Origin: a virus
Lineage: Duplodnaviria > Heunggongvirae > Uroviricota > Caudoviricetes
IMG/VR virus record: IMGVR_UViG_3300021255_002784
Span: 24,416 to 88,415 of that record
DNA length: 64,000 bases
Strand: one strand, 5' to 3'
Shown here: in pieces, positions 6,838 to 52,620 of the stretch
Layout: the number at the start of each line of letters is the position of its first letter
Position numbering within the stretch: the first letter of the stretch is position 1
The notes under the pieces: model-generated
What the model was told of the DNA's origin: nothing
Seen by the model: only the letters and a program-made list of their open reading frames with translations
Database searches by the model: none
Position numbers and translations under genes: made by a program

Positions 6838-6861
6838 TAGAATTTTTTAATAAAAAAAATC

Positions 6862-6895: not shown

Positions 6896-6922
6896 TTTAT
6901 ATAAAAAGAGAAGCTCATTGAT

Positions 6923-10317: not shown

Positions 10318-10358
10318 GTTTATCCAAAGAATAATTTATTATATTAAAAACCGATCAA

Positions 10359-18749: not shown

Positions 18750-19254
18750 AGATACACATAGCCCAATGAAGGCATATCGTTTGAAACACATACCCACAGG
18801 TCTCTATTGGGTGAAAAAAAGCTACGGTCGTCTTTCTGATACAGGGACCTTGTTTACAACAGCTGCTAATTCGTTTAATGGATTAGGTCCTGATTCGAGT
18901 GTTCCTTTGTATATCTTACAGGACAAATTCATCCGTCAACACCTGGATGTATTTGAGAGAGTAGGTGAACTCGAAGAAATTCCTGAAACAGAATGGGATA
19001 TGAAAATCGGTAAATTTATCCCGACAGGTAAGTCGCACTTTCAATGGCACATGACATCTAAGGTATCGGATTTTGAGAAAGAATACGTGACCCTGGATCC
19101 CGAGGTACCAGAACCGCCTGTAAGCGAGAAGGATTCGGACCTTGTTGAGCAAGTAACACGTATCTGCTGGAACCAGATGTTTTCTATCTCAAAGGACTTG
19201 ATGCCTTACGAAGATCTATTGAAACGTGTTAAAAATCAATTGGATAAGAAATGA
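18739..19254 (+). CDS. hypothetical protein (~171 aa from the internal ATG)
   Basis: ORF; start chosen at MNNKDT after the upstream stop. Confidence 0.4.
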   Translation: MNNKDTHSPMKAYRLKHIPTGLYWVKKSYGRLSDTGTLFTTAANSFNGLGPDSSVPLYILQDKFIRQHLDVFERVGELEEIPETEWDMKIGKFIPTGKSHFQWHMTSKVSDFEKEYVTLDPEVPEPPVSEKDSDLVEQVTRICWNQMFSISKDLMPYEDLLKRVKNQLDKK

Positions 19255-19769
19255 AAGTCATTTTCCTGGACATAGATGGTGTGCTCAATTCAGAAGAATA
19301 CTTCAAACGCTGGCATGAGGAGAACCTAGGACAAAAAGGTCACGATCATTATGTAGATGAGATAGCTGTGGATAGACTGATGGACCTGATCCAGAAGACG
19401 GGTTGTTATATAATATTATCCTCTTCTTGGAGACGACACAACCTACCTGATACTATTTTATATCTATCCGAACACCGAAGTTTGGATAGGATACAACCTT
19501 ATCTGATTGGCATCACACCCCGTCTATGGCAGTACAGAGGTAGAGGTGACGAGATCAAACGTCTGATGAATGAATGGTCTGACTGGGTCAAGCGGGGTCT
19601 GATCAGCGAAAAATTCAAAGATGACAAGATCAATAACTACGTTATTCTGGATGATGATTCAGACATGCTGGATGAACAAAAAGAACATTTCATTCATACA
19701 AAGTGGGCAGTAGGGCTACAGGATTCTGATGTGGAGAAGTGCTTAAATATTTTGGGAGGAAATCACTAA
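19251..19769 (+). CDS. HAD-superfamily hydrolase-like protein
   Basis: N-terminal FLDIDGVLN (HAD motif I DxDGV); its stop codon lies inside the AATCACTAA repeat motif. Confidence 0.5.
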   Translation: MKVIFLDIDGVLNSEEYFKRWHEENLGQKGHDHYVDEIAVDRLMDLIQKTGCYIILSSSWRRHNLPDTILYLSEHRSLDRIQPYLIGITPRLWQYRGRGDEIKRLMNEWSDWVKRGLISEKFKDDKINNYVILDDDSDMLDEQKEHFIHTKWAVGLQDSDVEKCLNILGGNH

Positions 19770-31252: not shown

Positions 31253-32755
31253 ATGGTAAACATTTCATTTATTATCGGAGGTGCGGTTTTGACACTCCTC
31301 GTTCTGATTCTGTGTCTTTCGTATGTGAAGGCAAGTCCTAACATGGCATTGGTAATCTCGGGTTGGCCATTGAAGAATCCTAAGTTCCTTAAAGGCACAG
31401 GTGGCCTTCGCATCCCAGGATTACAAAAAGTAGATGGTCTGTATCTCGGACAATTCTCTGTGGATATCAAAGCGTCATCTATCCCTACGAAGGACTTCAT
31501 CAACGTGAATGTCGACGCAGTGGCGAAGATTTGTGTCGACCAAGAACTTATTGCGACAGCAGCAACTAACTTCCTGAACTTCAGTCCTCAAGACATTGCA
31601 CGAAACATTCAAGAGTCATTGGAAGGTAACATGCGTGAGATTGTTGGTACACAGGAGCTCAAACAGTTGAACCTGGACCGAGATGGATTCTCCGACCAGA
31701 TCCGTAACAAGGCCGAGAAGGACATGCAACAGTTAGGTCTCCACATTCTTACCTGTAACATCCAGAACATCACTGATGAAAAAGGGCTTATTCAGGACCT
31801 AGGTGCAGACAACACTTACATGATTAAGAAGAACGCCTCCATCAACAAAGCTAATGCGGAACGCGATGTCGCTATTGCCGAAGCAAAAGCAAAGAAAGAG
31901 GCCAACGATGCCCGAGTAGCATCCGAGACGGAGATCGCTCAACGTAATACCGAGTTGGCAGTCAAACAGGCGGAACTGAAGCGTCAAGCGGATACCCAAA
32001 AGGCAATGGCCGATGCAGCTTACAAGATCCAGGAGCAAGAACAGGCCAAAGAGATTAACGTCAAGACAGTTGAGGCACAAGCAGCTAAGACGATCCGTAT
32101 CAACGAGCGCCAAAAGGAAATCAACCGTCTCGAGGTAGAGGCAAAGGTCGAGAAGGCCAAACAAGAGCAAGCCTTGAAAGAGCAAGAGATTGCTATTCAG
32201 GAGAAGACATTGGCTGCACAAGTCAACAAACAAGCCGATGCAGATAAGTACCAGAAAGAGGTCAATGCCGCCGCCGAATTGGAGCAACGTAAACGTAAGG
32301 CAGAAGCCGAGCGTTATGAGGCAGAACAGAAAGCACTGGCTGTCAAAGCCAAGGCGGAAGCGGATCTCTATGCGCGCCAGCAAGAAGCCGCAGGTATCAA
32401 GGCTGTAGGTGAGGCAGAAGCAGCTGCCATCTTGGCTAAGGGAGAGGCAGAAGCCAAAGCAATGGACAAGAAAGCAGAGGCGTACAAGAAGTACGGACAC
32501 GCCGCACTCGCACAAATGGTTGTGGACAAGCTCCCTGAGGTAGCCGCATCAGTCGCAGAACCACTCAAGTCTATCAAGGACGTTCACGTCTATGGCACGA
32601 ACGGTAGTGAGGTATCAGGTATCTCAGGCAACGTTCCGGTGCTGGTGAAACAGTCGATGGATGTGATGGAACAGGCTACCGGTGTAAACCTCGGAAAGAT
32701 TATGGAAGAGAACTCCAAAGTGATCTCTGCAGGAGCCAAAGTGGAAGGTAAGTAA
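31253..32755 (+). CDS. SPFH/band-7 (flotillin-like) membrane protein with long Ala/Lys/Glu-rich coiled-coil
   Basis: N-terminal TM helix, SPFH-like core (ALVISGWPL...GLRIPGLQKVDGLYLGQFSVDIK...), then ~250 aa of AEAKAKKEA-type heptad repeats (flotillin/YqiK architecture). Confidence 0.6.
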   Translation: MVNISFIIGGAVLTLLVLILCLSYVKASPNMALVISGWPLKNPKFLKGTGGLRIPGLQKVDGLYLGQFSVDIKASSIPTKDFINVNVDAVAKICVDQELIATAATNFLNFSPQDIARNIQESLEGNMREIVGTQELKQLNLDRDGFSDQIRNKAEKDMQQLGLHILTCNIQNITDEKGLIQDLGADNTYMIKKNASINKANAERDVAIAEAKAKKEANDARVASETEIAQRNTELAVKQAELKRQADTQKAMADAAYKIQEQEQAKEINVKTVEAQAAKTIRINERQKEINRLEVEAKVEKAKQEQALKEQEIAIQEKTLAAQVNKQADADKYQKEVNAAAELEQRKRKAEAERYEAEQKALAVKAKAEADLYARQQEAAGIKAVGEAEAAAILAKGEAEAKAMDKKAEAYKKYGHAALAQMVVDKLPEVAASVAEPLKSIKDVHVYGTNGSEVSGISGNVPVLVKQSMDVMEQATGVNLGKIMEENSKVISAGAKVEGK

Positions 32756-34680: not shown

Positions 34681-34766
34681 ACCGCAATGGCGGAATTGGT
34701 AGACGCACCAGACTTAAAATCTGATGGACCAAAAGGTCCGTGTGGGTTCGAGTCCCACTTGCGGCA
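34681..34766 (+). tRNA. tRNA-Leu (anticodon TAA), type II
   Basis: cloverleaf: TG + GCG/CGC D-stem, anticodon loop CTTAAAA, variable arm hairpin, GTGGG-TTCGAGT-CCCAC T-arm; A1.C72 mismatch. Confidence 0.7.
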
Positions 34767-35126
34767 CAGTGTAAAAAAATTAAAAAAAAATATAAAGATC
34801 ACTAAAATTTAGAAAAGTTTTCTTATATATTATTGTAGAAGGACAGAAGCAAAAGTTCTAATACAAAACGATCTTTGACATATTGGAAATAGCAAAAAAG
34901 AAACTACATTGCTAAGGAAGGATAGTAAAACTATCCTGACAAAGCAATCGCAATACAAACAGGCGTAACGCTACTGTTTCTCGTGAGAGTTCAGTTACGA
35001 AAGGATGGGTCGAAAGACTTTCTTATCACATCCCGGACCACTTAGATCGATGAGGTGGACATTACGTAACGCTTTGACACAACGAGCGTATTTCTAGAAA
35101 TAGAATTTTGGAGTTGAGTTATCAAT

Positions 35127-35201
35127 AGGGTAGTGGCTCAGTCCGGTTAGAGCACTTGATTTGGGATCAAGGGGTCGCAGGTTCGAATCCTGTCTACCCT
35201 A
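35127..35201 (+). tRNA. tRNA-Pro (TGG)
   Basis: canonical cloverleaf, anticodon loop TTTGGGA. Confidence 0.85.
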
Positions 35202-35367
35202 CATACAGTTTGACATTGCGACGAAGAGCAAATCACGCAAAGTTACTTGAACAGTTCGGTGGCAGATATTGGAGATATATTGGTGAGACGGACGAAGACC
35301 AAGAAGGATGGTGATCGTAGCGCTTGAAATAACTCTAACGTATGGTAATGAGAATGTCAATCTTTTA

Positions 35368-35439
35368 GGGGAGTTAGCTCAATGGTAGAGCAATTGGCCG
35401 TTAACCAATAGGTTGTAGGTTCGAATCCTGCACTCCCCG
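35368..35439 (+). tRNA. tRNA-Asn (GTT)
   Basis: canonical cloverleaf, loop CCGTTAA. Confidence 0.85.
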
Positions 35440-35598
35440 CAAGTGGCGGGCGATTGATAGTTCTTACCGTCCAAGTTATAAGAACTATACAAAGAGCGAA
35501 ACGCAGGAGGCTCCATGAGAGGTGACTTTAAGCAAGACTCTCAAATCCAAAAACTTTATCTCGTAGAAGTTCCGGACACGGTTTTCATATGAGAGGTA

Positions 35599-35675
35599 CG
35601 TCTTTAAGCTTTGCACGGAGTGAAGTAGTATTGGGCTCTGTCCGGTAGAACGAGGTTCGAATCCTTGAAAGACGG
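35599..35675 (+). tRNA. tRNA-like element, possibly Arg (TCT), non-canonical
   Basis: 7-bp acceptor CGTCTTT/AAAGACG, good T-arm (CGAGG-TTCGAAT-CCTTG), D-stem GCTT/AAGT, anticodon arm with two G.U pairs and loop GCTCTGT (C33, G37). Confidence 0.35.
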
Positions 35676-35684
35676 CAATCGTAT

Positions 35685-35757
35685 TGGGAGATCTTCTAAA
35701 CGGTTAGGAAATCGGTCTGATACACCGGCAATCCGAGTTCGAGTCTCGGCCTCCCAA
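35685..35757 (+). tRNA. tRNA-Ile (GAT)
   Basis: cloverleaf, loop CTGATAC; A7.C66 mismatch. Confidence 0.75.
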
Positions 35758-35774
35758 CATAGTAAATACACTAA

Positions 35775-35847
35775 TGCCCTCTAGTATATCGAATTAGTAC
35801 ATCAGATTTTGATTCTGAGGGGCGAGGTTTGACTCCTCGGAGGGCAA
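35775..35847 (+). tRNA. tRNA-Gln (TTG)
   Basis: cloverleaf, loop TTTTGAT, U1-A72 pair typical of Gln; D-loop lacks GG. Confidence 0.75.
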
Positions 35848-36180
35848 CTTACAAATAAAACAATTTATGTGCAGCGCCTGACGACACATATCTTAGGAAT
35901 TGTAGGAACAACAATTTGGCAAATGTTGGGCACGGATAGTTGAAGGAAAACAACTTAAATAAACCAGAGTGCAGCGCCGAATGTGCCGTTGGGGATGGGG
36001 ACACACCTCTATAAATGAACAAAATGAATTATCTCCACCAACAAATCAACATGTCATTACGAACCAGCATAAGGTACGTACAATGTTCGTTTCTGAAAAG
36101 ATATAGGACTCTCAAAAAGACCAAGCTCCAGTTTGGCCACTGACTTGGGTGAGGAGAGGAAAATGAATGTTGATTTATAT

Positions 36181-36251
36181 TGCCTTTTGGTGTAATGGCA
36201 GCACATAGGGTTCTGGTCCCTAGAATCCGGGTTCGAGTCCTGGAGAGGCAA
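36181..36251 (+). tRNA. tRNA-Gln (CTG)
   Basis: cloverleaf, loop TTCTGGT, U1-A72. Confidence 0.75.
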
Positions 36252-36371
36252 CAAAAGCAATAAGTTGATGGTTCAAATCCATCTCGCGCGGAAGCGTTCA
36301 GTCAGACTTCCAAGTGATAGTTGGCCTGAAATTGGTCTTCGAAGATAAATGGTGTAAAACGTATTGCTCAC

Positions 36372-36455
36372 GGGAGAGCGCCAACGATGGTGAGTTGGGA
36401 TGGACTGTAAATCCATTGTCTTTTGACTCAGGGGGTTCGAATCCCTCCTCTCCCA
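36372..36455 (+). tRNA. tRNA-Tyr (GTA), type II
   Basis: loop CTGTAAA, long variable arm. Confidence 0.8.
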
Positions 36456-36483
36456 CATATGAAGATACTGGAATAAAATATAT

Positions 36484-36559
36484 ACCTCGGTAGGCAAATG
36501 TTGGTAAAGCCGATAGACTTAGGATCTGTTGTTTGTGGGTTCGAATCCCACTCGGGGTA
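36484..36559 (+). tRNA. tRNA with anticodon TAG (Leu by the code) but a type-I (short variable arm) structure
   Basis: acceptor ACCTCGG/TCGGGGT with two G.U pairs, loop CTTAGGA, 5-nt variable region, A73. Confidence 0.55.
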
Positions 36560-36582
36560 CAACAGATGAAATAGTATTGCAA

Positions 36583-36657
36583 GACTCCGTAGCTCAGTTG
36601 GATGAGAGCAACGCACTTTTAATGCGTGGGTCCTGGGTTCAAGTCCCAGCGGGGTCA
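36583..36657 (+). tRNA. tRNA-Lys (TTT)
   Basis: canonical, loop CTTTTAA. Confidence 0.85.
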
Positions 36658-36869
36658 CAATTATAACTAAAGTTAGAGGAAGAAGTCTTTTAGTTGTTCT
36701 CAGGAGAACGGCGGTTCGTTGAGGTACTGGGTCTGATAATGAAAAGGTTCCTCGTCAAAGGTTTAGGTCATAACCTTAGGATAATAACCCATAACTACTT
36801 TGAATGACCAGAGACTGTTATGGCAAAGGGGTCTTGACTAAAAGAGCGCATCACAAATCTAACTTATTT

Positions 36870-36942
36870 GGACCGGTAGCTCAGTTGGTAGAGCGCAGGC
36901 CTGAAGAGCCTGGCGTCGGCGGTTCGATCCCGTCCTGGTCCG
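36870..36942 (+). tRNA. tRNA-Phe (GAA)
   Basis: canonical, loop CTGAAGA. Confidence 0.85.
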
Positions 36943-36975
36943 CAATGAATAATGTGGCAGAGTGAAACGGATACG

Positions 36976-37051
36976 AGCTTTGTAATTATTGCTCAGAAAT
37001 CATTGGGGGCCCATAACCCACAGATAGCAGGTTCGACTCCTGCAGCCGCAA
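36976..37051 (+). tRNA. degenerate tRNA-like element (Met-like anticodon loop CCCATAA; no matching 5' acceptor)
   Basis: good T-arm GCAGG-TTCGACT-CCTGC and anticodon-like hairpin, but no complementary 5' acceptor or D-stem found. Confidence 0.25.
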
Positions 37052-37071
37052 CAAAATAAAAATATATAAAT

Positions 37072-37145
37072 GGTGTCATAGTTCAGCTGATTAGAATGCC
37101 TGACTGTCGATCAGGAGGTCGCGGGTTTGAGTCCCGCTGGCACCG
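37072..37145 (+). tRNA. tRNA-Asp (GTC)
   Basis: canonical, loop CTGTCGA. Confidence 0.85.
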
Positions 37146-37155
37146 CTAATATATG

Positions 37156-37227
37156 GGCCATGTAGTGTAACGGCTAGCACTTCACATTTGCAATGTGACG
37201 GAGGGGTTCGAATCCCACATGTGTCCA
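37156..37227 (+). tRNA. tRNA-Ala (TGC)-like element with defective T-stem/acceptor; ends in TCCA
   Basis: perfect anticodon arm TCACA-TTTGCAA-TGTGA, D-arm GTGT/GCAC, but T-stem and acceptor pairing are poor. Confidence 0.3.
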
Positions 37228-37237
37228 CAAACATCAT

Positions 37238-37319
37238 ACCCTGGTGGCGGAATTGGTAGACGCGCTTGACTCAAAATCAGGTCCGAAAGGGTGTGTGGGT
37301 TCGAGTCCTACCTAGGGTA
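37238..37319 (+). tRNA. tRNA-Leu (CAA), type II
   Basis: TG + GCG D-stem, loop CTCAAAA, variable hairpin, GTGGG-TTCGAGT-CCTAC. Confidence 0.8.
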
Positions 37320-37338
37320 CACGTAAAATAATATAAGT

Positions 37339-37662
37339 ATGAGAAAAATTATCAATGCGTTCGCAGTCTTGTTTATATTGATTGGATTAAATGCATGTCA
37401 GGTACAGAAAATCAATCCAAAATGGACACAGGATCCGCGAGTAGAAGTAGTAAATGAACAGACAGTCATATTCCGGGATGTGATTAGGATTGAAATTATT
37501 TCAAACAATCCAGCGCAAATCACATACGTTTACGATTTGAAACATGGTAGACCGGTCAAGACAGCACGAAGTTCATTTGAAGTAAACGTAAAACACGGCG
37601 ACTATCTTATTCAGTCGAATCGCAAAATCACCAAAACACAGTACGAGGTCGTTATTGAATGA
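37339..37662 (+). CDS. small secreted/lipoprotein-like protein (107 aa) embedded in the tRNA array
   Basis: signal-peptide-like N-terminus MRKIINAFAVLFILIGLNAC (lipobox-like LNAC). Confidence 0.4.
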   Translation: MRKIINAFAVLFILIGLNACQVQKINPKWTQDPRVEVVNEQTVIFRDVIRIEIISNNPAQITYVYDLKHGRPVKTARSSFEVNVKHGDYLIQSNRKITKTQYEVVIE

Positions 37663-37901
37663 CCTCTGCTCATGAGGCTATTATCACAATTGGTTAATAT
37701 GGTGGGTTCGAATCCCTCTAGTCCCACAACCGGTAAAAAGACATATGTCTAGCGCAAAGCCGAGTGTCCTGCGCGATATAAAAAGGACTGCCAAGTCATC
37801 TTGAGGAGCTATAGATGAGCTACACGCTGTTGTGGTAAGTGAACAGAAAAGCTTTAGGGGTTTCAAAATTTGTAAATCTTTGTGTTGATGAGAAGCAACT
37901 A

Positions 37902-37971
37902 GTCTCGGTAGCTCAGTTGGTTAGAGCTCTCCGCGGAGGAGAGGTCGCTGGTTCAAGTCCAGTCTGAGACG
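37902..37971 (+). tRNA. tRNA-like gene with truncated anticodon arm (70 nt; possible anticodon CGG)
   Basis: perfect acceptor, D-arm (GCTC-AGTTGGTTA-GAGC) and T-arm, but only 19 nt between D and T arms (CTCTCC-GCGGA-GGAGAG, 5-nt loop). Confidence 0.4.
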
Positions 37972-37975
37972 ATGT

Positions 37976-38048
37976 GCCCGGATAGCTCAGTTGGTAGAGC
38001 AACTGATTTGTAATCAGTCGGTCGTCAGTTCGAGTCTGACCCCGGGCT
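37976..38048 (+). tRNA. tRNA-Thr (TGT)
   Basis: canonical, loop TTTGTAA; A7.C66. Confidence 0.8.
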
Positions 38049-38141
38049 CGCATGCATTTCCAGGATTCAATTGGAATCGAATTTCATATTTGGCGGGTGA
38101 CTAAAATTGATTATGGTGTTAATACTGGCAGAACACCCCAT

Positions 38142-38215
38142 GCAGGAATAGCTCAGTTGGCCAGAGCGGGACCTTGCCAAGGTTCAGGTCGCGAGTTCGA
38201 GTCTCGTTTCCTGCT
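38142..38215 (+). tRNA. tRNA-Gly (GCC)
   Basis: canonical, loop TTGCCAA. Confidence 0.85.
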
Positions 38216-38430
38216 CCAGGATATAGCCCAGATACGGGTCTGATGAAGACATTCGTTAGTAGTTGCGGGACGCCAATACGAAACAGTTTGTTGGATTCTA
38301 AAACATGAAGTTTATGGAGACTGTGGTGGTTGCAAACTCCGCAGTGGAAATGATGATGTATGTAAATAGAGTGCTCCCTGTGGAGGGGAGAGGTCGAAGA
38401 ATAACCCGTAAAAACTTCTGTCCTGACCAT

Positions 38431-38502
38431 GACCAATGAGTCCAGGCGGTTAGGCACCAATCTGCAAAATTGGGTAGCGGGGTTCAACTCCCTGATTGGT
38501 CA
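38431..38502 (+). tRNA. tRNA-Cys (GCA)
   Basis: loop CTGCAAA, T-loop TTCAACT. Confidence 0.75.
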
Positions 38503-38730
38503 CAAAATGGGTTCAAGCTGTACATAGGACCCTCCGGTAATTCCAGGTATGTATGTTTAGACCGGACGCTCGGGAGCTTATAGTCCTGCGATAGTGCGAC
38601 TAAATTACGGGACATGGTGTACGGTGCATATCTAGGGGGCTAGAAGGTGAGGGGTAAATAATGCTAGTTGCGAATAACCTCTTTATCAGCAATGGTACAG
38701 GTTCGACTCCTGATGTCTCGACAAATATAT

Positions 38731-38804
38731 GGCCTTATCGTCTAACCTGCGCAGGACGTTACTCTCTCAAGGTAAAAATCCGAGTTCGATCCTCGGTGAG
38801 GCTA
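38731..38804 (+). tRNA. tRNA-Glu (CTC)-like
   Basis: acceptor with two G.U pairs, loop CTCTCAA, D-loop without GG, T-arm CCGAG-TTCGATC-CTCGG. Confidence 0.5.
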
Positions 38805-38936
38805 CTATTGCAACTGGATTGGAAAACAGAGCACCATTCTAATCTCATGAGAGTTAGTAGGCAGGCATAGAAGATTCAGACTCTCAGACCCCGAGATAGC
38901 TCAGCTGGTTAGAGTCCAGTTCTCGGGACGCATTAT

Positions 38937-39011
38937 TGGTTCTGAGCTCGGCTGGTGCGTAGCGGCGGTCTCATAAACCGAGGGACGTGGGTTCAAATCC
39001 CACAGAGCCAA
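38937..39011 (+). tRNA. tRNA-Met (CAT), elongator-type
   Basis: loop CTCATAA, U1-A72 paired, large D-loop. Confidence 0.7.
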
Positions 39012-39086
39012 CACACAAAAAATTAAATGATCCATTAAAGATCAGAAGAGAGCTTCTATATATTATTATAGAAGAACGAAACATAC

Positions 39087-39159
39087 TGGGGTATAGTTCA
39101 GCTGGTAGAATGTTGGTCTCCAAAACCGAAGGTCGCGGGTTCGAATCCTGCTGCCCCTG
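39087..39159 (+). tRNA. tRNA-Trp (CCA)
   Basis: loop CTCCAAA, 3' CGCCCCT-like acceptor as in E. coli Trp; U1.U72 mismatch. Confidence 0.75.
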
Positions 39160-39264
39160 CTAAAGTTCGAAAGTCCTTAACGAAAGCGGTGTGATCAACA
39201 TGTCAACCTTAAACAAGTTGAAGACGCAGTGAAAATCTGACATCGTAAGAGGGAAGAACTTTTT

Positions 39265-39345
39265 ACTCCCATGCTGGAAATGGTAGACAGGCCAGACTAA
39301 GGATCTGGTGTCTTCGACGTGCGGGTTCGAGTCCCGCTGGGAGTA
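39265..39345 (+). tRNA. type-II tRNA with anticodon AAG (Leu by the code; unusual A34)
   Basis: TG + CTG/CAG D-stem as in the other Leu tRNAs, loop CTAAGGA, variable hairpin GTC-TTCG-GAC, perfect acceptor ACTCCCA/TGGGAGT. Confidence 0.6.
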
Positions 39346-39404
39346 CGTAAAACGGTAATCTAGTATACATTTGAAAAAGTTAGACTACCATTTTATTATA
39401 GATC

Positions 39405-39878
39405 ATGAGAAAAGATTTAATTGGAAGAACCCAGGATATTCTTAAATGGGTTGCTGAAGGATGGTCATTTACAGAAATGTACAAGGAACTCGGTTGTTCC
39501 CGAGATGCACTTCATTATTTCTTGAAAACCAGAAAGATCGAATATAAAGGTAATCAGAGTAGAAAAGGGAGAAAAATAGATCCTAAAAGAAAAACGGCTC
39601 TTCAACTTATAGATGGAATTGAAAATGGGCTCAGTATCGGTAATTCTACATTAAGGGACAGACTCATCCAAGACAAGCTCAAAGAATATAAGTGTGAAGT
39701 ATGTGGGGCGAATGAATGGTTCGGAAAACCCATACCGTTAGAGTTGCATCACAAGGATTTCAATCATCACAACTCTAAATTAGAAAATCTTCAAATACTA
39801 TGTCCAAATTGCCACGCATATATTCATAAATACAATATAATCACTCCTATGTTGGAAATGGTAGACAGGCCAGACTAA
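39405..39878 (+). CDS. HNH homing endonuclease (HTH + HNH) inserted in the tRNA array
   Basis: C-terminal HNH motif CEVCGANEW...LELHHKDFNHHNSKLENLQILCPNCH; the last 9 codons are encoded by a duplicated tRNA 5' half. Confidence 0.7.
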   Translation: MRKDLIGRTQDILKWVAEGWSFTEMYKELGCSRDALHYFLKTRKIEYKGNQSRKGRKIDPKRKTALQLIDGIENGLSIGNSTLRDRLIQDKLKEYKCEVCGANEWFGKPIPLELHHKDFNHHNSKLENLQILCPNCHAYIHKYNIITPMLEMVDRPD

Positions 39879-39923
39879 GGAGTTGGTGTCTTTGACGTGA
39901 GGGTTCGAGTCCCTCTTTGGGCA
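39844..39923 (+). pseudogene. chimeric/pseudo tRNA (5' half copied from the 39265 tRNA, 3' half from a different type-II tRNA)
   Basis: 33-nt near-identity to the 39265 tRNA up to the anticodon loop, then divergent 3' half with compensatory T-stem (GAGGG/CCCTC) and acceptor 3' TTTGGGC that cannot pair with the 5' end. Confidence 0.5.
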
Positions 39924-40286
39924 CAGGTCTTTGACATATTGATACCGCAAGAAAAGAATAAGTTCAAAGATTCAACACGTTTTTATGCGATTGAGTAGGC
40001 AGTTGGAATAATAAGCGTCATAAGATGAGGGAGTCGACGTTGAAATCGAATTGTTACCAGAGCAGCACTTACTGGGAGTATTAACAAAGTCTTGAAAGCT
40101 TCGAGATTTCATTGATGAACATAGCCCGAAGTCAACAAAACGAGAACGATTCAACGGGTTCGAATCCGATGAATCCAACACAAACCGGATGGTGCAACCG
40201 GATAGTCACGGGATTGAAACTTACTGAGTATGTTCCGCTTCAGAGTACTTCGGAGAACCCCTATATCTTTTAAGCGGTATCTTTTT

Positions 40287-40358
40287 GCCCCGATAGTTCA
40301 ACGGATAGAACATGTGGCTACGGACCACAGGATCCGGGTTCGAATCCTGGTCGGGGTA
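40287..40358 (+). tRNA. tRNA-Arg (ACG)
   Basis: canonical, loop CTACGGA. Confidence 0.85.
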
Positions 40359-40366
40359 CTTTTTAT

Positions 40367-40439
40367 GCGGGAGTAGCTCAGCTGGTAGAGCATCTGCCCT
40401 CCAAGCAGAGGGTCGCGAGTTCGAGTCTCGTCTCCCGCT
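40367..40439 (+). tRNA. tRNA-Gly (TCC)
   Basis: canonical arms; loop CCTCCAA (C33). Confidence 0.7.
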
Positions 40440-40514
40440 CAATCCTTCCAGGTTTAAGTTGAAAGAGCGGCCTGGTAGCTATGTTCTGGAATAGCAAAAA
40501 ACTCATCGCTCCAC

Positions 40515-40541
40515 AAGGATTTTGAAGGTTGAATCCTTTTT
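40515..40541 (+). terminator. rho-independent terminator-like hairpin inside the tRNA array
   Basis: AAGGATT-TTGAAGGTTG-AATCCTT + TTTTTT. Confidence 0.5.
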
Positions 40542-40544
40542 TAT

Positions 40545-40618
40545 GGTGTCTGTAGCTCAGCTGGTAGAGTGGAGGATTGTGGTTCCTAAGGTCGTGGGTC
40601 CGAGTCCCACCTGACACC
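40545..40618 (+). tRNA. tRNA-His (GTG) with encoded G-1
   Basis: loop TTGTGGT, extra 5' G opposite C73, T-loop TCCGAGT. Confidence 0.75.
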
Positions 40619-40638
40619 CATACACAAAACTATTCCAA

Positions 40639-41032
40639 TATGAATTTCAAAACGATAACACATCGTCAATCATGGAAAGATGCTGAAAGTATCTATATCA
40701 TGGAGAGTACAGGCGGCGCAATGATCAGAATCACCAAATACACTGATAATGAAGCCTATCTGTTATCTGACTTGTACGTCAATCCGGTATTGAGAAAACG
40801 TGGACTGGGTACTCTGATGATTGAAAGTGCTATCAAGGAGTGTCGTACTCATGCGCAGCTGAATGACATTGAGCCATGTGTCGTTGAGATGGCAGTTAAT
40901 GATCATTCCGAGAAGTTCTGTGCTGAATGGTATCAACGAATGGGGTTCGTTCTTAATAGAAGTGAAGCACCGATCGATACAACATTCGACAATGAACTTG
41001 AGTGGTGTGATATCTATAGACTCGTTGTCTGA
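40639..41032 (+). CDS. GNAT-family N-acetyltransferase
   Basis: motif A-like VNPVLRKRGLGTLMIESAI; the ORF as listed starts inside tRNA-His, so the start was moved to MNFKT. Confidence 0.55.
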
Positions 41033-41040
41033 TGTTTACA

Positions 41041-41115
41041 AGACTCCGTAACGGAGTCCCGCTGCACGGTCTCCGTGACTGCGTTAATGAAATCCGGAGG
41101 CTTTCAAGACTCCGT
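41041..41115 (+). repeat. inverted copy of the intergenic repeat cassette plus a GC-rich hairpin sub-element, abutting a tRNA 5' end
   Basis: reverse complement reads CGGAGTCTTGAAAGCCTCCGGATTTCATTAACGCAGTCACGGAGACCGTGCAGCGGGACTCCGTTA; palindrome GACTCCGTAACGGAGTC. Confidence 0.6.
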
Positions 41116-41180
41116 AGCTCAGTGTATAGAGCAGCAGTTTTCTAAACTGCCGGTCCTGGGTTAGAGTCCCAGCGGAGCCA
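41108..41180 (+). tRNA. tRNA-Arg (TCT) lacking G18G19 and C56
   Basis: loop TTTCTAA, D-loop AGTGTATA, T-loop TTAGAGT, A2.C71 mismatch; the first 15 nt are identical to tRNA-Lys. Confidence 0.6.
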
Positions 41181-41327
41181 CATTTTCTATTATTTTTTTC
41201 TTCATCAACGAAGTCCTGAAAAACTTTAGTTTTTTCACTAAATATTTTTCGTGTTTTCATATATTTATACATAACGCAGTCATAAATTCCTACGGGATTT
41301 CATTAACACTCAAAACAATATAGATAT

Positions 41328-41684
41328 ATGAAGCACATTCTTTGGATAGATGACCTGAGGGATCCACATTCTCCGAAGTGGAAAGAGTATCTCGATTATG
41401 CCGCAGAAGAGTTCTTAGATGTTCCTCTGAATGAGTGTACAGTAAGCTGGGCACGGAGCAAGAACGAGTTTATCCAGCATCTCATTCTTGAGACCTGGCC
41501 GGATCTAGTTTGTTTCGATCACGATCTCGGACTTGGTCCTACAGGGTACGACTGTGCCAAGTACTTAGTAGATATGTGCATGGAGACAGGCAATCCTCTT
41601 CCAGAGTTTGTATCCCAGTCGTCTAATCCAGTCGGGCGAGAAGACATCATTCGTTTACTTGAAAACTATAGGAAACACTTATAA
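41328..41684 (+). CDS. hypothetical protein (118 aa)
   Basis: ORF after a promoter box. Confidence 0.45.
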   Translation: MKHILWIDDLRDPHSPKWKEYLDYAAEEFLDVPLNECTVSWARSKNEFIQHLILETWPDLVCFDHDLGLGPTGYDCAKYLVDMCMETGNPLPEFVSQSSNPVGREDIIRLLENYRKHL

Positions 41685-41694
41685 TAACATTTCA

Positions 41695-42609
41695 ATGAAA
41701 AGACAAATCATTCTATTACAAGGACCGCCTCGAAGTGGTAAGACGACTTGGGCGAAAACACACTGGGACACAGCACCTCTAGATACCTACGTATATATGA
41801 TCAGCACCCACGACCTGAGCTGGAAGTCCACAGATAGGGGTTATATTATAAATACTCTGGACACTGTTCTAGAGACAGAGCGTAAAGCTATCATGGAGCG
41901 CCTCAGTTATTATGATAGAGACTGGGACATCATTGTCGACGCTTACAACGCCAATCCTAAGCGGGTTCAGGAGTTCGAAAAACTCGCGAACAAGATGGGT
42001 GCAGAATTGGTAATCAAGCAGTTCTATATTCCTTACTCTGAAAGTTACAAACGCAACAAAGAGGTTGGAGTCCATTCCAAAGAATACATTCCTCGGGACG
42101 TTTTGGCCGGGTTCTATGATACGTACTACCACGAATGGTACCGGGACGAGCTCACAGACAAGAGAGTCATCAGACAACCGGAACCTACTCTTCCTCCTTG
42201 CATCATCTGCGACCTGGATGCTACACTAGCCTTACATCAGGGACGGGAACCATTCGAATGGGACCGACTCCTGACTGACAAGATCGACCCTCGCTTGCGA
42301 GATCTGTTGAACTTCCATATGACGTCCGGCACCAAGGTGTTCTTTCTAACAGGTCGCACCCAACGCGCACGACTGGATACCTTGATGTGGTTGCAAAATC
42401 CGAAACAGGGTCTGTGTGATGGGTGGGAACTGATCACTCGCAGTCAAGGAGATTTCTCTTCGGGTGATGTATACAAACTCAAGATGTACGAGCAACTCAT
42501 ACAAGGCAAGTACAATGTACTGTGCGTCTTCGAAGACAGTAACAAGTGTGTGAAAATGTGGAGAGAACTCGGTCTCTTGACTTGCCAGGTAGCAAATTCA
42601 GAATACTAA
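41695..42609 (+). CDS. polynucleotide 5'-kinase/3'-phosphatase (T4 Pnk/PseT-like)
   Basis: N-terminal P-loop GPPRSGKTT kinase domain; C-terminal HAD phosphatase with IICDLDATLA (DxDxT). Confidence 0.65.
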   Translation: MKRQIILLQGPPRSGKTTWAKTHWDTAPLDTYVYMISTHDLSWKSTDRGYIINTLDTVLETERKAIMERLSYYDRDWDIIVDAYNANPKRVQEFEKLANKMGAELVIKQFYIPYSESYKRNKEVGVHSKEYIPRDVLAGFYDTYYHEWYRDELTDKRVIRQPEPTLPPCIICDLDATLALHQGREPFEWDRLLTDKIDPRLRDLLNFHMTSGTKVFFLTGRTQRARLDTLMWLQNPKQGLCDGWELITRSQGDFSSGDVYKLKMYEQLIQGKYNVLCVFEDSNKCVKMWRELGLLTCQVANSEY

Positions 42610-42610
42610 T

Positions 42611-42841
42611 ATGCTTGATATGACACCCGAAGAGTTCGAAGCCGAAGTGCAAGGTACCATAGGTCTCATCTGCGACTGTGTTCCGTACGACACACCTAAC
42701 TATCACGAAGAGGTTCGTAAGCTGGCTGAAGACATAGTACGCGAACTACACGATCCGGATTCGGAAACCAATCAAAAAATTGCAAGCGAACAGGTCGAAC
42801 ACGATGATATTATGTTCGATGCCGGATACATAGACTTCTAA
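42611..42841 (+). CDS. hypothetical acidic protein (76 aa)
   Basis: ORF. Confidence 0.4.
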   Translation: MLDMTPEEFEAEVQGTIGLICDCVPYDTPNYHEEVRKLAEDIVRELHDPDSETNQKIASEQVEHDDIMFDAGYIDF

Positions 42842-42963
42842 TATATGACCGAACAAGAACTCGCACTCTATCGTAAGTGTACTCGAAAGAAAAGATGTAC
42901 CAGATACGACTACGAGTCTGTCCATGAATATGATAACGAAACCAACGAAAACGATTATATACT

Positions 42964-43476
42964 ATGACAAAAGAAGAACAACGCACAAACATCCTTAATA
43001 TGCTGAGAGACAACAAGATCAACGTCAACGATGCCCTGTTGATGCTCAACCGATTAGATGAAGAGGACTCACCTGTCGGCGAAGGTGTTCCTGTAACAGC
43101 CAAAACCCAAAAATCTTATCAGGACCTGATTGAGGATATCGTGGACCAAGTCATATCTGGCATGGACATGGATCGCGTATATCAGATTATGAAAGATATG
43201 GATTGGAACTATGTGAGTAAACCTGTGACATACGATGATATCGTCGAATGTGCCAAAGATAATGTTCGACACACTCTGGAATATCTGGTGAATAATAGAA
43301 TCAAAACAGGCGACGCATCAGCCATGTCTGGTACGGGAGGGTTCTTGTGCCGAGCCTGGGTGGACGAGGATGACGAAGACAACATCCAGGTGGAACTCGG
43401 GTTCCAACCGATAACTGGGATCGGAGACGGTCATTTAGATAAGTTGGTCGCAGCCAAAATAGAAATGGCGTCGTAA
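42964..43476 (+). CDS. hypothetical protein (170 aa)
   Basis: ORF. Confidence 0.45.
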   Translation: MTKEEQRTNILNMLRDNKINVNDALLMLNRLDEEDSPVGEGVPVTAKTQKSYQDLIEDIVDQVISGMDMDRVYQIMKDMDWNYVSKPVTYDDIVECAKDNVRHTLEYLVNNRIKTGDASAMSGTGGFLCRAWVDEDDEDNIQVELGFQPITGIGDGHLDKLVAAKIEMAS

Positions 43477-43683
43477 AAAAGATCCAAACAACAAATACGC
43501 CAGGCCTAAAATCTTCGATCATTTCTATATATTATAATTGAGGATGATACCGAAGGATAGTGCCCTATAGTTTTTCTACTAAAATTAGATGTTCTTTCTT
43601 ATCTATTATATAGAAGAACAACAAATACGAGATATGCGACTTGTGCTTGCACATGAGGGACCCTATATCACGTATTTGTTATA

Positions 43684-43773
43684 TGGAGAGTTGTCAGAGT
43701 CCGGTTTATTGTGCGAATCTTGAAAATTCGTGGGCGTGATGAGCGCTCCGGGGGTTCGAATCCCTCACTCTCC
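43684..43773 (+). tRNA. tRNA-Ser (TGA), type II, with encoded CCA
   Basis: loop CTTGAAA, long variable arm, 3' ACTCTCC-T-CCA. Confidence 0.8.
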
Positions 43774-43786
43774 TCCAGAGTTATAT

Positions 43787-43874
43787 TGGTGAGTTGGCCG
43801 AGTGGCTTAAGGCGCTGGTTTGCTAAACCAGTGATCTCGAAAAGAGATCCGTAGGTTCGAATCCTGCACTCACC
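43787..43874 (+). tRNA. tRNA-Ser (GCT), type II
   Basis: loop TTGCTAA, variable hairpin GATCTC-GAAAA-GAGATC. Confidence 0.8.
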
Positions 43875-44215
43875 GCACCAGTTACTTGAGCTGGTCACCA
43901 GAAGAGTAACAGCCTTTGGACAAAGACCAATGTCGCGAAGGAGTGGTTGGAGAGGTTCTAAATACAAACCCGAGAAACCTGAAAAGGCGAAGAACGCAGT
44001 TTCCTCAAATTAGGTACCATAAGTTAGATAACACCTTAAAGCCTAATGAACATCGGTAATAATATCAATTCCACCGATAATCAAAATGGAGTGGTCGCGG
44101 CTGAGTCGAGAGAAAGCTGAGATTTATTAGAGAGCTCATATAATATCTCTTTTCGGTACGAACTTACCGTTAGTGGATGATTACCACGGGTTATACAGCC
44201 CTATCGTCTAGCGGA

Positions 44216-44288
44216 CCAGGACGCCTCTCTTTCACGGAGGAAACACGAGTTCGAATCTCGTTGGGGCTACTTGTGGGATGAGTAGCAG
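44216..44288 (+). tRNA. tRNA-Glu (TTC)
   Basis: loop CTTTCAC, canonical arms. Confidence 0.8.
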
Positions 44289-44290
44289 TG

Positions 44291-44397
44291 GTAACAAGGT
44301 CCTGAATGACCCTTGGGTCTTCGATAGCTCGCCAGGCTCATAACCTGAAGGTCGGTGGTTCGATCCCACCTCCCGCAACTACATTTTTAGAGGAGAC
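44291..44397 (+). tRNA. tRNA-Met (CAT)-like with a ~30-nt insertion in the D-arm region (or a pseudo-tRNA)
   Basis: 3' two-thirds resemble bacterial initiator/elongator Met (TAGCTCG-CCAGG-CTCATAA-CCTGA-AGGTC-GGTGG-TTCGATC-CCACC-TCCCGCA-A); the only complementary 5' acceptor (TGTGGGA) lies 107 nt upstream. Confidence 0.35.
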
Positions 44398-44407
44398 CTG
44401 TATGGTC

Positions 44408-44437
44408 TCCTTTTTTTAATGCAATCTCAAAGATACG
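44408..44437 (+). terminator. rho-independent terminator closing the tRNA array
   Basis: AGGAGACC-TGTAT-GGTCTCCT + TTTTTTT. Confidence 0.7.
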
Positions 44438-44976
44438 CAAGACTTTGTTATTATATATACATGAAGACACTGTATGAAAGCATACTGGATGCTGATACCA
44501 AAATAATGAACCGTGCTGATAAAAAAGCAGCGACATATCTGAAGCGAAAAAAGAAGATTGATCTTGTCCTGGATGCGTTTGAAGATTTGGTGATTGATTG
44601 GGGTCTCAAATTCTCACATGATGCGGATTTCGGTCCAAATCATAGTATAAATTCAAAAAAGACTATTGCTCGATACTTTAACAAACGTGGTAAAACTAAT
44701 GCCCTCAAACAAGAGTTTATGGATGGTTACCGTTTTTTGAAAGACAAATTCGTAAGCATCTGGGATGAATGTGCACCAGAGGAAAACCTGTTATTAAATG
44801 ATCCGAGTGCATCTTTTGTATTCAAAGGTCTAGGAATAAAGGTTTGGATCAGCTTGCAAATAATTGATTGGGGCGGATCGAAATCTACTTATAATCTTTT
44901 CCTTATGGCATGTTTTGACCAGAACGATAAGTATATCGAAGATGTCACCAATAAACTTATAAAGAAGATATCATGA
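44419..44976 (+). CDS. hypothetical protein (185 aa), paralog of the next gene
   Basis: shares N-terminus MKTLYESILD.DT with 44973..45464. Confidence 0.45.
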   Translation: MQSQRYARLCYYIYMKTLYESILDADTKIMNRADKKAATYLKRKKKIDLVLDAFEDLVIDWGLKFSHDADFGPNHSINSKKTIARYFNKRGKTNALKQEFMDGYRFLKDKFVSIWDECAPEENLLLNDPSASFVFKGLGIKVWISLQIIDWGGSKSTYNLFLMACFDQNDKYIEDVTNKLIKKIS

Positions 44977-45464
44977 AAACACTATACGAAAGCATATTAG
45001 ACATCGACACACCTAGTCGTTGGGAGAATGATGTAAAGGTAGGTATTAAGCGTCAAAAACACATACAAGATGTACTGAAACCTATAGAGGATATCATTAA
45101 GATGTATCATTATAGTACTCAGAGTATTAGGACAAATAATACTGATATATATGGATTATCTGGGAATGTATATTGGTATGAATTTACGTCCACCGGAAAA
45201 CTGGCGCAAGACAAAAAGGGTGTGGGTGTATTACAAAGTATACTGAAACAAGATTATCGCAAATACAGACCAAAAAATATAAACGATTCGAACTCACCAG
45301 TCTTTCCGATGTCTCAATTTATTTTTGAAGATTTGGGTATGTCTATAGTTATATTCGTTGTGGACCACACTGGCGTAAACATTCGCCTATGTTATCAATC
45401 AGATAACAAGCAAACAGGTAAGTACATACAAGATCTGGTGGACAAATATACAGAACCATTCTAA
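44973..45464 (+). CDS. hypothetical protein (163 aa), tandem paralog
   Basis: see the paralog entry above. Confidence 0.45.
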   Translation: MKTLYESILDIDTPSRWENDVKVGIKRQKHIQDVLKPIEDIIKMYHYSTQSIRTNNTDIYGLSGNVYWYEFTSTGKLAQDKKGVGVLQSILKQDYRKYRPKNINDSNSPVFPMSQFIFEDLGMSIVIFVVDHTGVNIRLCYQSDNKQTGKYIQDLVDKYTEPF

Positions 45465-51579: not shown

Positions 51580-52080
51580 ATGAACGAACCAAAGAAACAT
51601 TCAAAAGCATACTGGATCTGGAGACGATTCAGAGCCAAGTTATATGATATACGGAGTTTCTTCGTGTATCTATTTTATCGTTTACCACGTAACTATTATT
51701 TGATAAAACGATATCCATTTTTGAAGTTGTATCAAGGATACAAAGAGACCTGGTTGGACTACATGCCTATCGGATGGTGTAAGGCATTTGGTCTTCAGAT
51801 ATGTCGTGAGATTCAAGAGGTGATTGATCGCGACCATATTACAGACTATTCGATTAGTCAAGTAAAAGAAAAGTTCGGTGGGCTCCGATGGTATGATAGT
51901 GGTGGCAATCAAGCCATTCAGGACATTATTAGCAAGTACGAAAAGCTCAGTATGCAGATATGTATGATATGCGGTCGCCCTGCTGAATACATAACTACTG
52001 GTTGGATCGGTTGTTACTGTGACAAATGCATAAAGAATTTCAGGCCTGGCACCTATACAAAAACAATAAAAGAGTCCTAA
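51580..52080 (+). CDS. hypothetical protein with C-terminal Cys cluster (166 aa)
   Basis: CMICGRPAEY...CYCDKC. Confidence 0.4.
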   Translation: MNEPKKHSKAYWIWRRFRAKLYDIRSFFVYLFYRLPRNYYLIKRYPFLKLYQGYKETWLDYMPIGWCKAFGLQICREIQEVIDRDHITDYSISQVKEKFGGLRWYDSGGNQAIQDIISKYEKLSMQICMICGRPAEYITTGWIGCYCDKCIKNFRPGTYTKTIKES

Positions 52081-52100
52081 AATTTTAGGACTTTTTTCAT
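52072..52100 (+). terminator. rho-independent terminator
   Basis: AGTCCTAAAAT/ATTTTAGGACT palindrome + TTTTTTC. Confidence 0.6.
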
Positions 52101-52131
52101 ATATATATTTATATAAACAAAACAAGTATAT

Positions 52132-52620
52132 ATGATACAAGTAGTTATAGTACGAGGCTTGCAAGGCTCGGGTAAGTCGACTTGGGCAAAGAATTGGGTA
52201 AAAGAAGATCCGGAACGCCGTATTCGTATCAATTGGGATGATCTCCGTGTAATGATGGGTGGTACAGACTGCTATTGGATTCCGAGTCGAGAAAAGATCC
52301 CGTTCCTGAATCGAGTGATGAACACGATGTTGATCACAGCGTTCGAACACGATATCAGCGTGGTGATCGACAACCTGAACCTGAATCCTAAAACGATCAA
52401 GTCTATCCTGAGCATGATAAAGAGTGCCACTTTGAAGGACGTTCAAATTTTTTACAAGAACATACTGACTCCTATCGAGGAATGTATCAAGAGGGACGCA
52501 CAACGAGAACGTCCTATCGGTGAGAAAGGTATACGCGACACTGCAGCACGTTATCCAGATTTCTATTCCGAGACTGATGAGGGTACCAAGATATTGGAGT
52601 CTATTGGCAAAAAACTTTAA
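52132..52620 (+). CDS. P-loop kinase resembling the Pnk kinase domain (AAA_33-like)
   Basis: VVIVRGLQGSGKSTWAKNW Walker A at the N-terminus, like the T4 Pnk kinase domain. Confidence 0.5.
   Translation: MIQVVIVRGLQGSGKSTWAKNWVKEDPERRIRINWDDLRVMMGGTDCYWIPSREKIPFLNRVMNTMLITAFEHDISVVIDNLNLNPKTIKSILSMIKSATLKDVQIFYKNILTPIEECIKRDAQRERPIGEKGIRDTAARYPDFYSETDEGTKILESIGKKL

Follow-up and report, generated by a model that had tools for sequence, protein, structure and literature searches.

Why would a tailed phage devote almost 10 kb of its genome to tRNA genes, and lodge an enzyme of the T4 polynucleotide kinase-phosphatase (Pnk) type among them? The locus that raises this question lies in a 64,000-nucleotide stretch of the IMG/VR virus record IMGVR_UViG_3300021255_002784 (positions 24,416 to 88,415), referred to here in its entirety as the window, in which an original prediction made from the sequence alone had described an array of at least 26 tRNA genes closed by a terminator and carrying a Pnk-like gene. 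The explanation that we favor, and in which we have moderate confidence as a whole, is that the array gives the phage a decoding set together with an embedded RNA end-healing cassette, and that its composition turns over rapidly, in part through the homing of an HNH endonuclease.

A search of the window with ARAGORN called 29 tRNA genes, all on the + strand and all within a 9.7-kb cluster at 34681-44270. With the gathering threshold of Rfam family RF00005 (29 bits) plus cloverleaf structure as the standard, 27 tRNAs passed at the default gathering setting, and Tyr-GTA (36372) passed at 38.7 bits once filters were relaxed, which gives 28 credible genes with scores of 32.8 to 73.3 bits. The predicted array was thus borne out; every anticodon that had been listed is present, and Leu-TAG, Leu-AAG, Pro-CGG and Ala-TGC are to be added.

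34681..44270, + strand, tRNA array with 28 credible genes (ARAGORN, RF00005, cloverleaf structures)
Array order, genes 1-10: Leu-TAA, Pro-TGG, Asn-GTT, Ile-GAT, Gln-TTG, Gln-CTG, Tyr-GTA, Leu-TAG, Lys-TTT, Phe-GAA
Array order, genes 11-19: Asp-GTC, Ala-TGC, Leu-CAA, Pro-CGG, Thr-TGT, Gly-GCC, Cys-GCA, Glu-CTC, CAT (Met or Ile2)
Array order, genes 20-28: Trp-CCA, Leu-AAG, Arg-ACG, Gly-TCC, His-GTG, Arg-TCT, Ser-TGA, Ser-GCT, Glu-TTC

These genes cover 19 amino acids, with four copies for Leu, two each for Gln, Gly, Glu, Arg, Ser and Pro, and single copies for Asn, Ile, Tyr, Lys, Phe, Asp, Ala, Thr, Cys, Trp and His, plus one CAT gene; because of this breadth, the set looks like a replacement of the host pool and not like a top-up of a few rare codons. 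Their own CCA end is encoded by Gly-GCC and Ser-TGA only, the remaining 26 of 28 relying on a CCA-adding enzyme. As the original prediction had stated, no Val tRNA was called in the window by ARAGORN at default stringency. Val candidates at 35252, 40831 and 41905, obtained with relaxed ARAGORN, were discarded, as they had no Rfam support and two of them fell within open reading frames (ORFs); the extra calls made under relaxed settings (-ps80, -ps60, introns allowed, mitochondrial mode) were mostly noise. Weak Rfam matches to DUF2693 RNA, YrlA and plastid untranslated regions were also rejected, being far under threshold or antisense to tRNAs.

Three short contigs (L004, L006 and L007) encode a Pnk 68-82% identical to that of the array and are syntenic with the window at 72-96% DNA identity. 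The tRNA order is the same in all three, with order and sequence conserved relative to L004 at 75-96% identity, and Pnk is embedded among tRNA genes in at least three related lineages. Single genes nevertheless differ: L004 carries Lys-CTT, two further CAT tRNAs, a canonical second Ala, Thr-AGT (Thr-TGT in the window) and Leu-GAG, and L007 carries Thr-TGT, Ala-TGC and Val-TAC, whereas the window instead has Ser-TGA and Ser-GCT, plus a 312-nt insertion bearing Pro-CGG. Anticodons have switched at orthologous positions in Thr (TGT/AGT) and Leu (AAG/GAG), and the intact CAT tRNA of the window (38937; Met or Ile2) corresponds to the third CAT gene of L004. As judged from these alignments, the array evolves quickly, with tRNA genes gained, lost, anticodon-switched and pseudogenized between close relatives. 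The tRNA-Val(TAC) gene of L007 (3440-3530) shows a 15-nt tandem duplication in the T arm (GTCGCAGGTTCGAAT, twice), either an assembly artifact or a disruption of the gene.

One of the differences from L004 is the presence of an endonuclease gene next to a damaged tRNA gene.

39405..39878, + strand, HNH homing endonuclease with helix-turn-helix (HTH) and HNH domains (phrog_10822 1.5e-22; weak Pfam HNH match)
39843..39924, + strand, chimeric pseudo-tRNA-Leu, called 'Pro-TGG' by ARAGORN at 39851-39924 (Rfam 22.4 bits at 39843-39923, sub-threshold)

In L004, which represents the empty site, Trp-CCA and Leu-GAG are separated by 12 nt. Relative to this arrangement, ~680 bp are inserted in the window between Trp and the resident Leu position, comprising a spacer, an intact Leu-AAG (39265-39346), a 58-nt spacer and the HNH gene (cassette region 39161-39924). 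The HNH ORF enters the pseudo-tRNA-Leu and stops in its anticodon loop, its last ~12 codons being extra with respect to homologs. This pseudo-tRNA is the 29th ARAGORN call, which was rejected as a tRNA for its low score, its broken acceptor stem and its chimeric Leu halves. Columns 1-39 at its 5' side match Leu-AAG at 37 of 39 positions and L004 Leu-GAG at only 23, whereas the 31 columns at the 3' side match L004 Leu-GAG at 29 positions and Leu-AAG at 25, and the downstream flank is common to L004; the acceptor stem is broken because the two halves are mismatched. A compensatory change in the T stem distinguishes the two Leu copies.

The HNH family (~145 aa, 554 homologs) adjoins a tRNA-Leu at six of the six loci examined, that is, in the window and next to five homologs. 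The tRNA lies upstream of the HNH gene at an identical 58-nt spacing in L015, abuts the gene in L016, and begins 2-4 nt past the HNH stop in L020 and L021; in L017 an intact tRNA-Leu contains the end of the HNH ORF, which enters the tRNA in the frame seen in the window. Otherwise syntenic relatives differ in carrying or lacking the gene (the window versus the empty L004), and the type of site it occupies is fixed. Taken together, the adjacency to tRNA-Leu, the empty site and the chimera make up the pattern expected of a free-standing homing endonuclease targeting tRNA-Leu. The chimeric pseudogene is consistent with a scar of a conversion tract that ended inside the tRNA; the endonuclease would have been inserted with its own intact tRNA-Leu, leaving a chimeric dead copy of the resident gene. 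Free-standing homing endonucleases sit in the tRNA regions of other phages (T4 SegB; T5 F-TflI, F-TflII and F-TflIV), where likewise a small endonuclease among tRNA genes is present or absent in close relatives and the flanking tRNA is converted. The case described here differs from them in that an HTH-HNH family is consistently linked to tRNA-Leu, its ORF often ending in the 5' end of the tRNA, and in that a spare intact tRNA-Leu is carried and a chimeric pseudogene left behind.

A separate observation concerns the HNH gene of L016 (6001-6438), which contains in-frame TAG at conserved Gln positions and whose array includes a tRNA with a CTA anticodon (6837-6909); that phage probably recodes TAG to Gln. 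The genetic code of the window is standard, with 39 TAA, 14 TGA and 3 TAG stops.

Remains of other tRNA genes are found in the spacers, where a scan for T-arm hairpins revealed seven extra ones on the + strand inside the array.

36953..37052, + strand, initiator-like CAT tRNA pseudogene (ortholog of the intact Met-CAT at L004 821-894)
38890..38929, + strand, internally deleted remnant of a second CAT tRNA (compared with Met-CAT at L004 3170-3244)
44271..44378, + strand, degenerate initiator-like CAT tRNA (partial Rfam match of 25.1 bits at 44323-44372; T-arm scan, fold)
35599..35676, + strand, cloverleaf-shaped tRNA relic (T-arm scan, folds, relaxed ARAGORN)

The pseudogene at 36953, undetected by Rfam, retains acceptor, anticodon and T arms around a D region disrupted by ~26 extra nt, and in the remnant at 38890 the acceptor and D arm are fused straight onto the 3' end. 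In the degenerate gene at 44271 the acceptor stem measures 8 bp, the loop reads CTCATAA, the T arm is good and the D region is bloated; the relic at 35599 combines a 7-bp acceptor stem and a perfect T arm with aberrant D and anticodon arms. Orphan T-arm hairpins begin at 36267, 37702 and 38697, with a weaker one near 40154, and BLAST comparison of the spacers with the array's own tRNAs gave matches of T-arm length only. At 41036-41057, just after the ORF of a GNAT acetyltransferase, a duplicated scrap of Arg-TCT, taken from its leader and 5' acceptor strand, forms a hairpin.

Some of the credible genes are aberrant too, and the several odd tRNAs of the original prediction turned out to be either these or pseudogenes. 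The anticodon loop (7 nt, U33, purine 37) is canonical in 25 of the 28 tRNAs. Asn-GTT (35368-35440) and Gly-TCC (40367-40440) have C33 instead of U33, the L004 ortholog of the latter retaining U33; further position-33 loci are L004 1756-1830, L004 8374-8447 and L015 5414-5496, so that which tRNAs have C33 in place of the near-universal U33 varies from relative to relative. In Pro-CGG, position 33 is G and the anticodon loop is self-complementary. The Ala copy, already singled out as defective, is weak by its score (Ala-TGC, 37156-37228; 32.8 bits) and by its T stem, and has C3·U70 in place of G3·U70, reportedly the identity pair of tRNA-Ala for its synthetase (AlaRS; Hou and Schimmel; McClain and Foss); the second Ala of L004 has G3·U70. 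Leu-TAG (36484-36560) measures 77 nt and is without the long variable arm, whereas the Leu-TAG of L004 at the same position is a normal 83-nt gene. A tRNA-Leu(TAG) of 75 nt, likewise without the long variable arm, occurs at L015 4013-4087. The tRNAs with A34 besides Arg-ACG are Leu-AAG (window 39265-39346) and Thr-AGT (L004 1756-1830); A34 tRNAs other than Arg-ACG are unusual in bacterial-type sets. Anticodon-loop changes in phage tRNAs have been suggested as a means of escaping anticodon nucleases (van den Berg et al. 2023, PMC10264068), in a work that does not discuss position 33. The array shares with those tRNAs the possession of noncanonical loops (C33 in Asn-GTT and Gly-TCC), and by this analogy the parallel with nuclease-evading tRNAs is only suggestive.

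The genes with a putative role in RNA end healing are found both within and outside the array.

41695..42609, + strand, Pnk, T4 PseT-like kinase-phosphatase (PF25109 8.8e-31; AAA_33 2e-7; phrog_505 7.5e-54)
41328..41684, + strand, cREC, cyclic-phosphate-processing receiver-like domain (PF20274 8.2e-18)
42620..43476, + strand, three ORFs downstream of Pnk, of 73, 40 and 170 aa (synteny)
52132..52620, + strand, stand-alone Pnk-type 5'-kinase of 162 aa, outside the array (AAA_33 2.3e-15)
19251..19769, + strand, HAD_SAK_2 phosphatase, a 'Swiss army knife' RNA-repair HAD, outside the array (PF18143 5.5e-25)

The product of the Pnk gene aligns over its full length with T4 Pnk (1LTQ; 1e-21; residues 3-303 versus 2-300; ~28-30% identity) and with bacterial Pnkp1. 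It is colinear with T4 Pnk, a P-loop kinase at the N terminus being joined to a DxDxT HAD phosphatase at the C terminus. Its phosphatase site is intact, with DLDATLA, QGRE, TGRT and FEDS aligned and invariant across the family, and its kinase half retains the P-loop and the Asp85 equivalent. Directly upstream, cREC scores 65.3 bits (cut-off 27) over profile positions 3-88 of 88; this domain is predicted to process 2',3'-cyclic phosphates (PMC7824862). The 170-aa protein (42964-43476) is consistently encoded just downstream of Pnk, even in distant relatives. It comprises an N-terminal SHOCT-like helix pair and a C-terminal domain of ~100 aa found in 166 clusters among 1.8 billion representative proteins; neither a Pfam family nor a convincing PDB fold match was found for it, the latter with an AlphaFold2 model at a predicted local distance difference test score (pLDDT) of 80. 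HAD_SAK_2 members are encoded directly upstream of Pnk in L008 and L010. The stand-alone gene at 52132, which had been proposed as a second Pnk-kinase-like gene, indeed encodes a Pnk-type P-loop kinase with all T4 catalytic motifs: the K15, S16, D35, R38 and R126 equivalents are retained (motifs GSGKS, NWDDLR and KRDAQR), and its top PDB matches are Pnkp1 (1e-7) and T4 Pnk. A - strand ORF at 51682-52503 was discarded as the second kinase, having no family match. The ORF at 29394 is an ATP-dependent DNA ligase in Pfam/PHROG-type family searches, as had been stated.

From this gene content we infer a function in which a nearly self-sufficient decoding set would make phage translation little dependent on a mismatched, depleted or cleaved host tRNA pool. 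Damaged RNAs would be healed in steps, cREC opening 2',3'-cyclic phosphate ends, the HAD domain of Pnk then stripping the resulting phosphate, and the separate 52132 kinase phosphorylating 5'-OH ends; the sealing step would require a ligase.

Several findings speak against this explanation or against parts of it. In the alignment of the array Pnk, the T4 motif NRDDYR (Asp35, Arg38) is replaced by STHDLSW and KRNSKR (Arg126) by KRNKEV; the same losses are found in the close homologs P0002, P0008 and P0017, whereas more distant homologs retain both motifs. As the T4 kinase has six essential residues (Lys15, Ser16, Asp35, Arg38, Asp85 and Arg126; PMC2831316), the kinase site of the array Pnk is, by alignment, degenerate, which makes the 52132 kinase the most likely 5'-end kinase. 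The claim of a T4-like 5'-kinase/3'-phosphatase inside the array thus stands for the bifunctional architecture and the phosphatase motifs, and not for the Arg38 and Arg126 equivalents of the kinase. No RNA ligase (Rnl1, Rnl2 or RtcB) was found among the ~60 ORFs of the window and in the gene tables covering 10 kb to either side (84 of the 197 kb of the source contig). Relatives whose Pnk is 46-52% identical keep the order HAD_SAK_2, Pnk, small ORF and 170-190-aa protein, and have no tRNA within 10 kb of the Pnk module; since the module is tRNA-free in these distant relatives, the linkage of Pnk with the array is specific to this clade, and their physical proximity may be incidental. The Ala and Pro-CGG genes seem defective, and in the window the two Met-type genes of L004 exist as pseudogenes; with Val absent as well, the set is therefore not fully autonomous. 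Finally, the gene content appears to fit a general supply of tRNAs as well as the countering of defenses, and the stress that it answers may be host anticodon nucleases, host shut-off or codon mismatch. An anti-defense role of the array and the end-healing genes, as originally proposed, is plausible from the anatomy of the locus, cREC, HAD_SAK_2 and the complete kinase, and is weakened by the ligase search, the degenerate Pnk kinase and the tRNA-free distant relatives.

Other explanations assign a different role to the tRNAs or to the repair genes. Pure compensation of codon usage, in which the tRNAs boost an AT-richer phage in a GC-richer host and the repair genes are unrelated, is possible though rather unlikely. 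The GC content of the phage is 40.7%, against ~46.7% in putative Paludibacteraceae host loci, and the A-ending codons read by the U34 tRNAs (11 of 11) are used more by the phage than by the host proxy; however, three A-ending codons without a phage tRNA are over-used to the same degree, an overall enrichment is absent (Mann-Whitney p = 0.75, with a crude host proxy of 172 ORFs around one gene family), and a set for 19 amino acids is far broader than a few rare codons need. With wobble pairing applied strictly, 82% of the 14,615 sense codons of the window can be read by the 28 anticodons, the main gaps being Val (5.8%) and AUA (2.6% of codons and 32% of Ile codons), so that the comparison of anticodons with codon usage gives broad coverage of the phage's own codons and no selective match with that crude proxy.

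That the Pnk module heals DNA or other ends, for example with the DNA ligase at 29394 during replication, recombination or homing traffic, and sits in the array by chance, seems improbable to us. T4 Pnk acts on DNA ends too, the window is rich in DNA-breaking homing endonucleases and inteins, the 84 kb searched yielded no RNA ligase, and in distant relatives the group of Pnk, small ORF and 170-aa partner is tRNA-free and in one case lies ~6.5 kb upstream of an NAD-dependent DNA ligase. Yet comparative genomics links cREC and HAD_SAK_2 with RNA repair and with cyclic-phosphate ends, which do not arise from DNA breaks, and the recurrence of Pnk among tRNAs in related lineages also argues against chance. 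Still less probable is that much of the array is decaying cargo, kept and shuffled by selfish elements and not by selection on translation. The at least four recognizable pseudogenes and the orphan T arms, the aberrant genes (Pro-CGG without U33, Ala with C3·U70, the short Leu-TAG) and the inserted HNH cassette would fit such decay, but the cloverleaves of at least 24 tRNAs are canonical and score 42-73 bits, the conservation of order and sequence extends to L004, and the T-stem change that separates the two Leu copies is compensatory.

A bolder extension of the favored explanation joins two claims, and we consider the pair unlikely to hold. The tRNA-Leu-linked HNH family would be a previously unrecognized and widespread driver of tRNA-array turnover in gut phages; and in this clade the array Pnk would be a healing enzyme for 3' ends only, acting without a ligase together with cREC and the 170-aa partner. 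In such a scheme, tRNAs clipped by a tRNase at the acceptor end would, for instance, have their cyclic-phosphate ends restored, and the CCA-adding enzyme of the host would rebuild them.

Comparison with known systems places the locus within a recognized type. T4 PseT (Pnk) and Rnl1 repair tRNA-Lys cleaved by PrrC. The array Pnk resembles PseT in its full-length colinearity, its P-loop and its DxDxT phosphatase site, and is unlike the T4 system in that the Arg38 and Arg126 equivalents are replaced, the gene lies inside a tRNA cluster and a homolog of Rnl1 is not found in the 84 kb. In jumbo phages, tRNA arrays with PNK-HAD, cREC and SAK-HAD have already been described (Iyer et al. 2021, PMC7824862), and phage tRNAs with end healing against tRNA-targeting defenses are the standard reading of such genomes (PMC7824862, PMC10264068). 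The present phage shares with jumbo and huge phages (PMC7824862; huge phages of the Al-Shayeb type, such as LR756500) tens of co-oriented tRNAs, a PNK-HAD fusion, a stand-alone SAK-HAD, cREC and a T4-like portal, and its 197-kb contig is just below the usual 200-kb jumbo threshold. It departs from their toolkits in that an ATP-grasp or RtcB ligase is not found in the same 84 kb, in that cREC adjoins Pnk and not a ligase, and in that, besides a Pnk with a degenerate kinase site, it has a kinase encoded separately.

Signals that might govern expression of the array were also located.

44389..44420, + strand, intrinsic terminator closing the array (terminator scan; seen in the fold of 44271-44420 too)
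34790..34845, + strand, array-specific AT-rich palindromic motif, approximately CTAAAATTTAGA-N6-TTTCTTATATATTATTATAGAAGAACA (motif scans)

The predicted terminator was recovered as a hairpin at 44389-44413 with a 10-bp stem (five G-C pairs) followed by a T-run. It is the sole strong + strand terminator of the region, and all genes of the array are co-oriented; we infer that the array would be transcribed rightward in one or a few units ending there. Two + strand ORFs (44419-45464) follow before the strand switch. Further copies of the palindromic motif are found at 39030-39080, 43523-43544 and ~43570-43625; the motif (TTTCTTATATATTATTATAGAAGAAC with its surrounding context) stands at the front of three sub-clusters, those at 34.8, 39.05 and 43.5 kb, with conservation in L007. 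The element TCTTTGACATATTG (34872 and 39928) also recurs at the head of tRNA sub-clusters, and motif and element are conserved in L007 and L004. Both are candidate promoters or operators. Scans for sigma-70 and for Bacteroidetes-type TTTG/TAnnTTTG promoters showed no enrichment over shuffled sequence.

The array also contains two protein genes besides those already described.

37339..37662, + strand, ORF of 107 aa, conserved in L004 (family searches, synteny)
40640..41032, + strand, GNAT acetyltransferase of 130 aa (Pfam Acetyltransf_7 8e-8; same position in L004, L006 and L007)

For the GNAT protein, a close solved relative was absent from structure-database matches, and its assignment as a TacT/AtaT-like aminoacyl-tRNA acetylase was rejected, as specific similarity was absent.

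A Pnk protein identical in sequence is encoded on ENA contig ERZ12302814 NODE_40 (197,476 bp), and the source is a large (~200-kb) phage with a T4-like portal from gut- or rumen-type metagenomes. The closest GenBank matches of the portal are uncultured huge phage LR756500 (42%), Sphingomonas phage PAU and Lak megaphages, and genes for a T4-type baseplate protein, gp2 and terminase lie in the 10-kb flanks. When the array was compared with GenBank phages by Megablast, the matches were of tRNA size only, and no near relative at the DNA level emerged; Pnk peptide patterns had no matches in IMG/VR, and a scan of Joint Genome Institute (JGI) metagenomes for relatives returned only contigs of up to 3.5 kb. 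A SBP_bac_8 solute-binding lipoprotein of the phage (58912-60192), probably a host-derived auxiliary gene, has its closest cellular homologs (55-60% identical) almost exclusively in metagenome-assembled genomes of Paludibacteraceae and other Bacteroidales from rumen and hindgut, which indicates the likely host lineage; the host is probably a member of the Bacteroidales in gut or rumen. The anaerobic ribonucleotide reductase gene NrdD (window 8743-12582) is split by an intein/zinc-finger insert, the terminase likewise bears an intein signature (L018 16379-18277), and two large ORFs, at 435-1952 and 6923-8611, resemble homing endonucleases. Selfish elements have colonized the genome heavily. Further cargo includes a flotillin/Band-7 protein (31253-32755), an MT-A70 methyltransferase (16986-17573) and a DenV-like pyrimidine-dimer glycosylase (52960-53397).

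The array is therefore a known kind of phage equipment, here reshuffled by gene decay and by a selfish endonuclease, and not a new system; taken alone, it is a further case of a large phage that combines end-healing enzymes with a tRNA array, already a recognized theme. Its value is that of a well-resolved example, in which single-gene changes (loss, anticodon switch, pseudogene, homing insertion with its scar) are visible against relatives, and it offers three testable leads: an HNH family targeted to tRNA-Leu, a kinase-degenerate Pnk in a genome that also encodes an intact kinase, and a conserved Pnk partner without a fold match.

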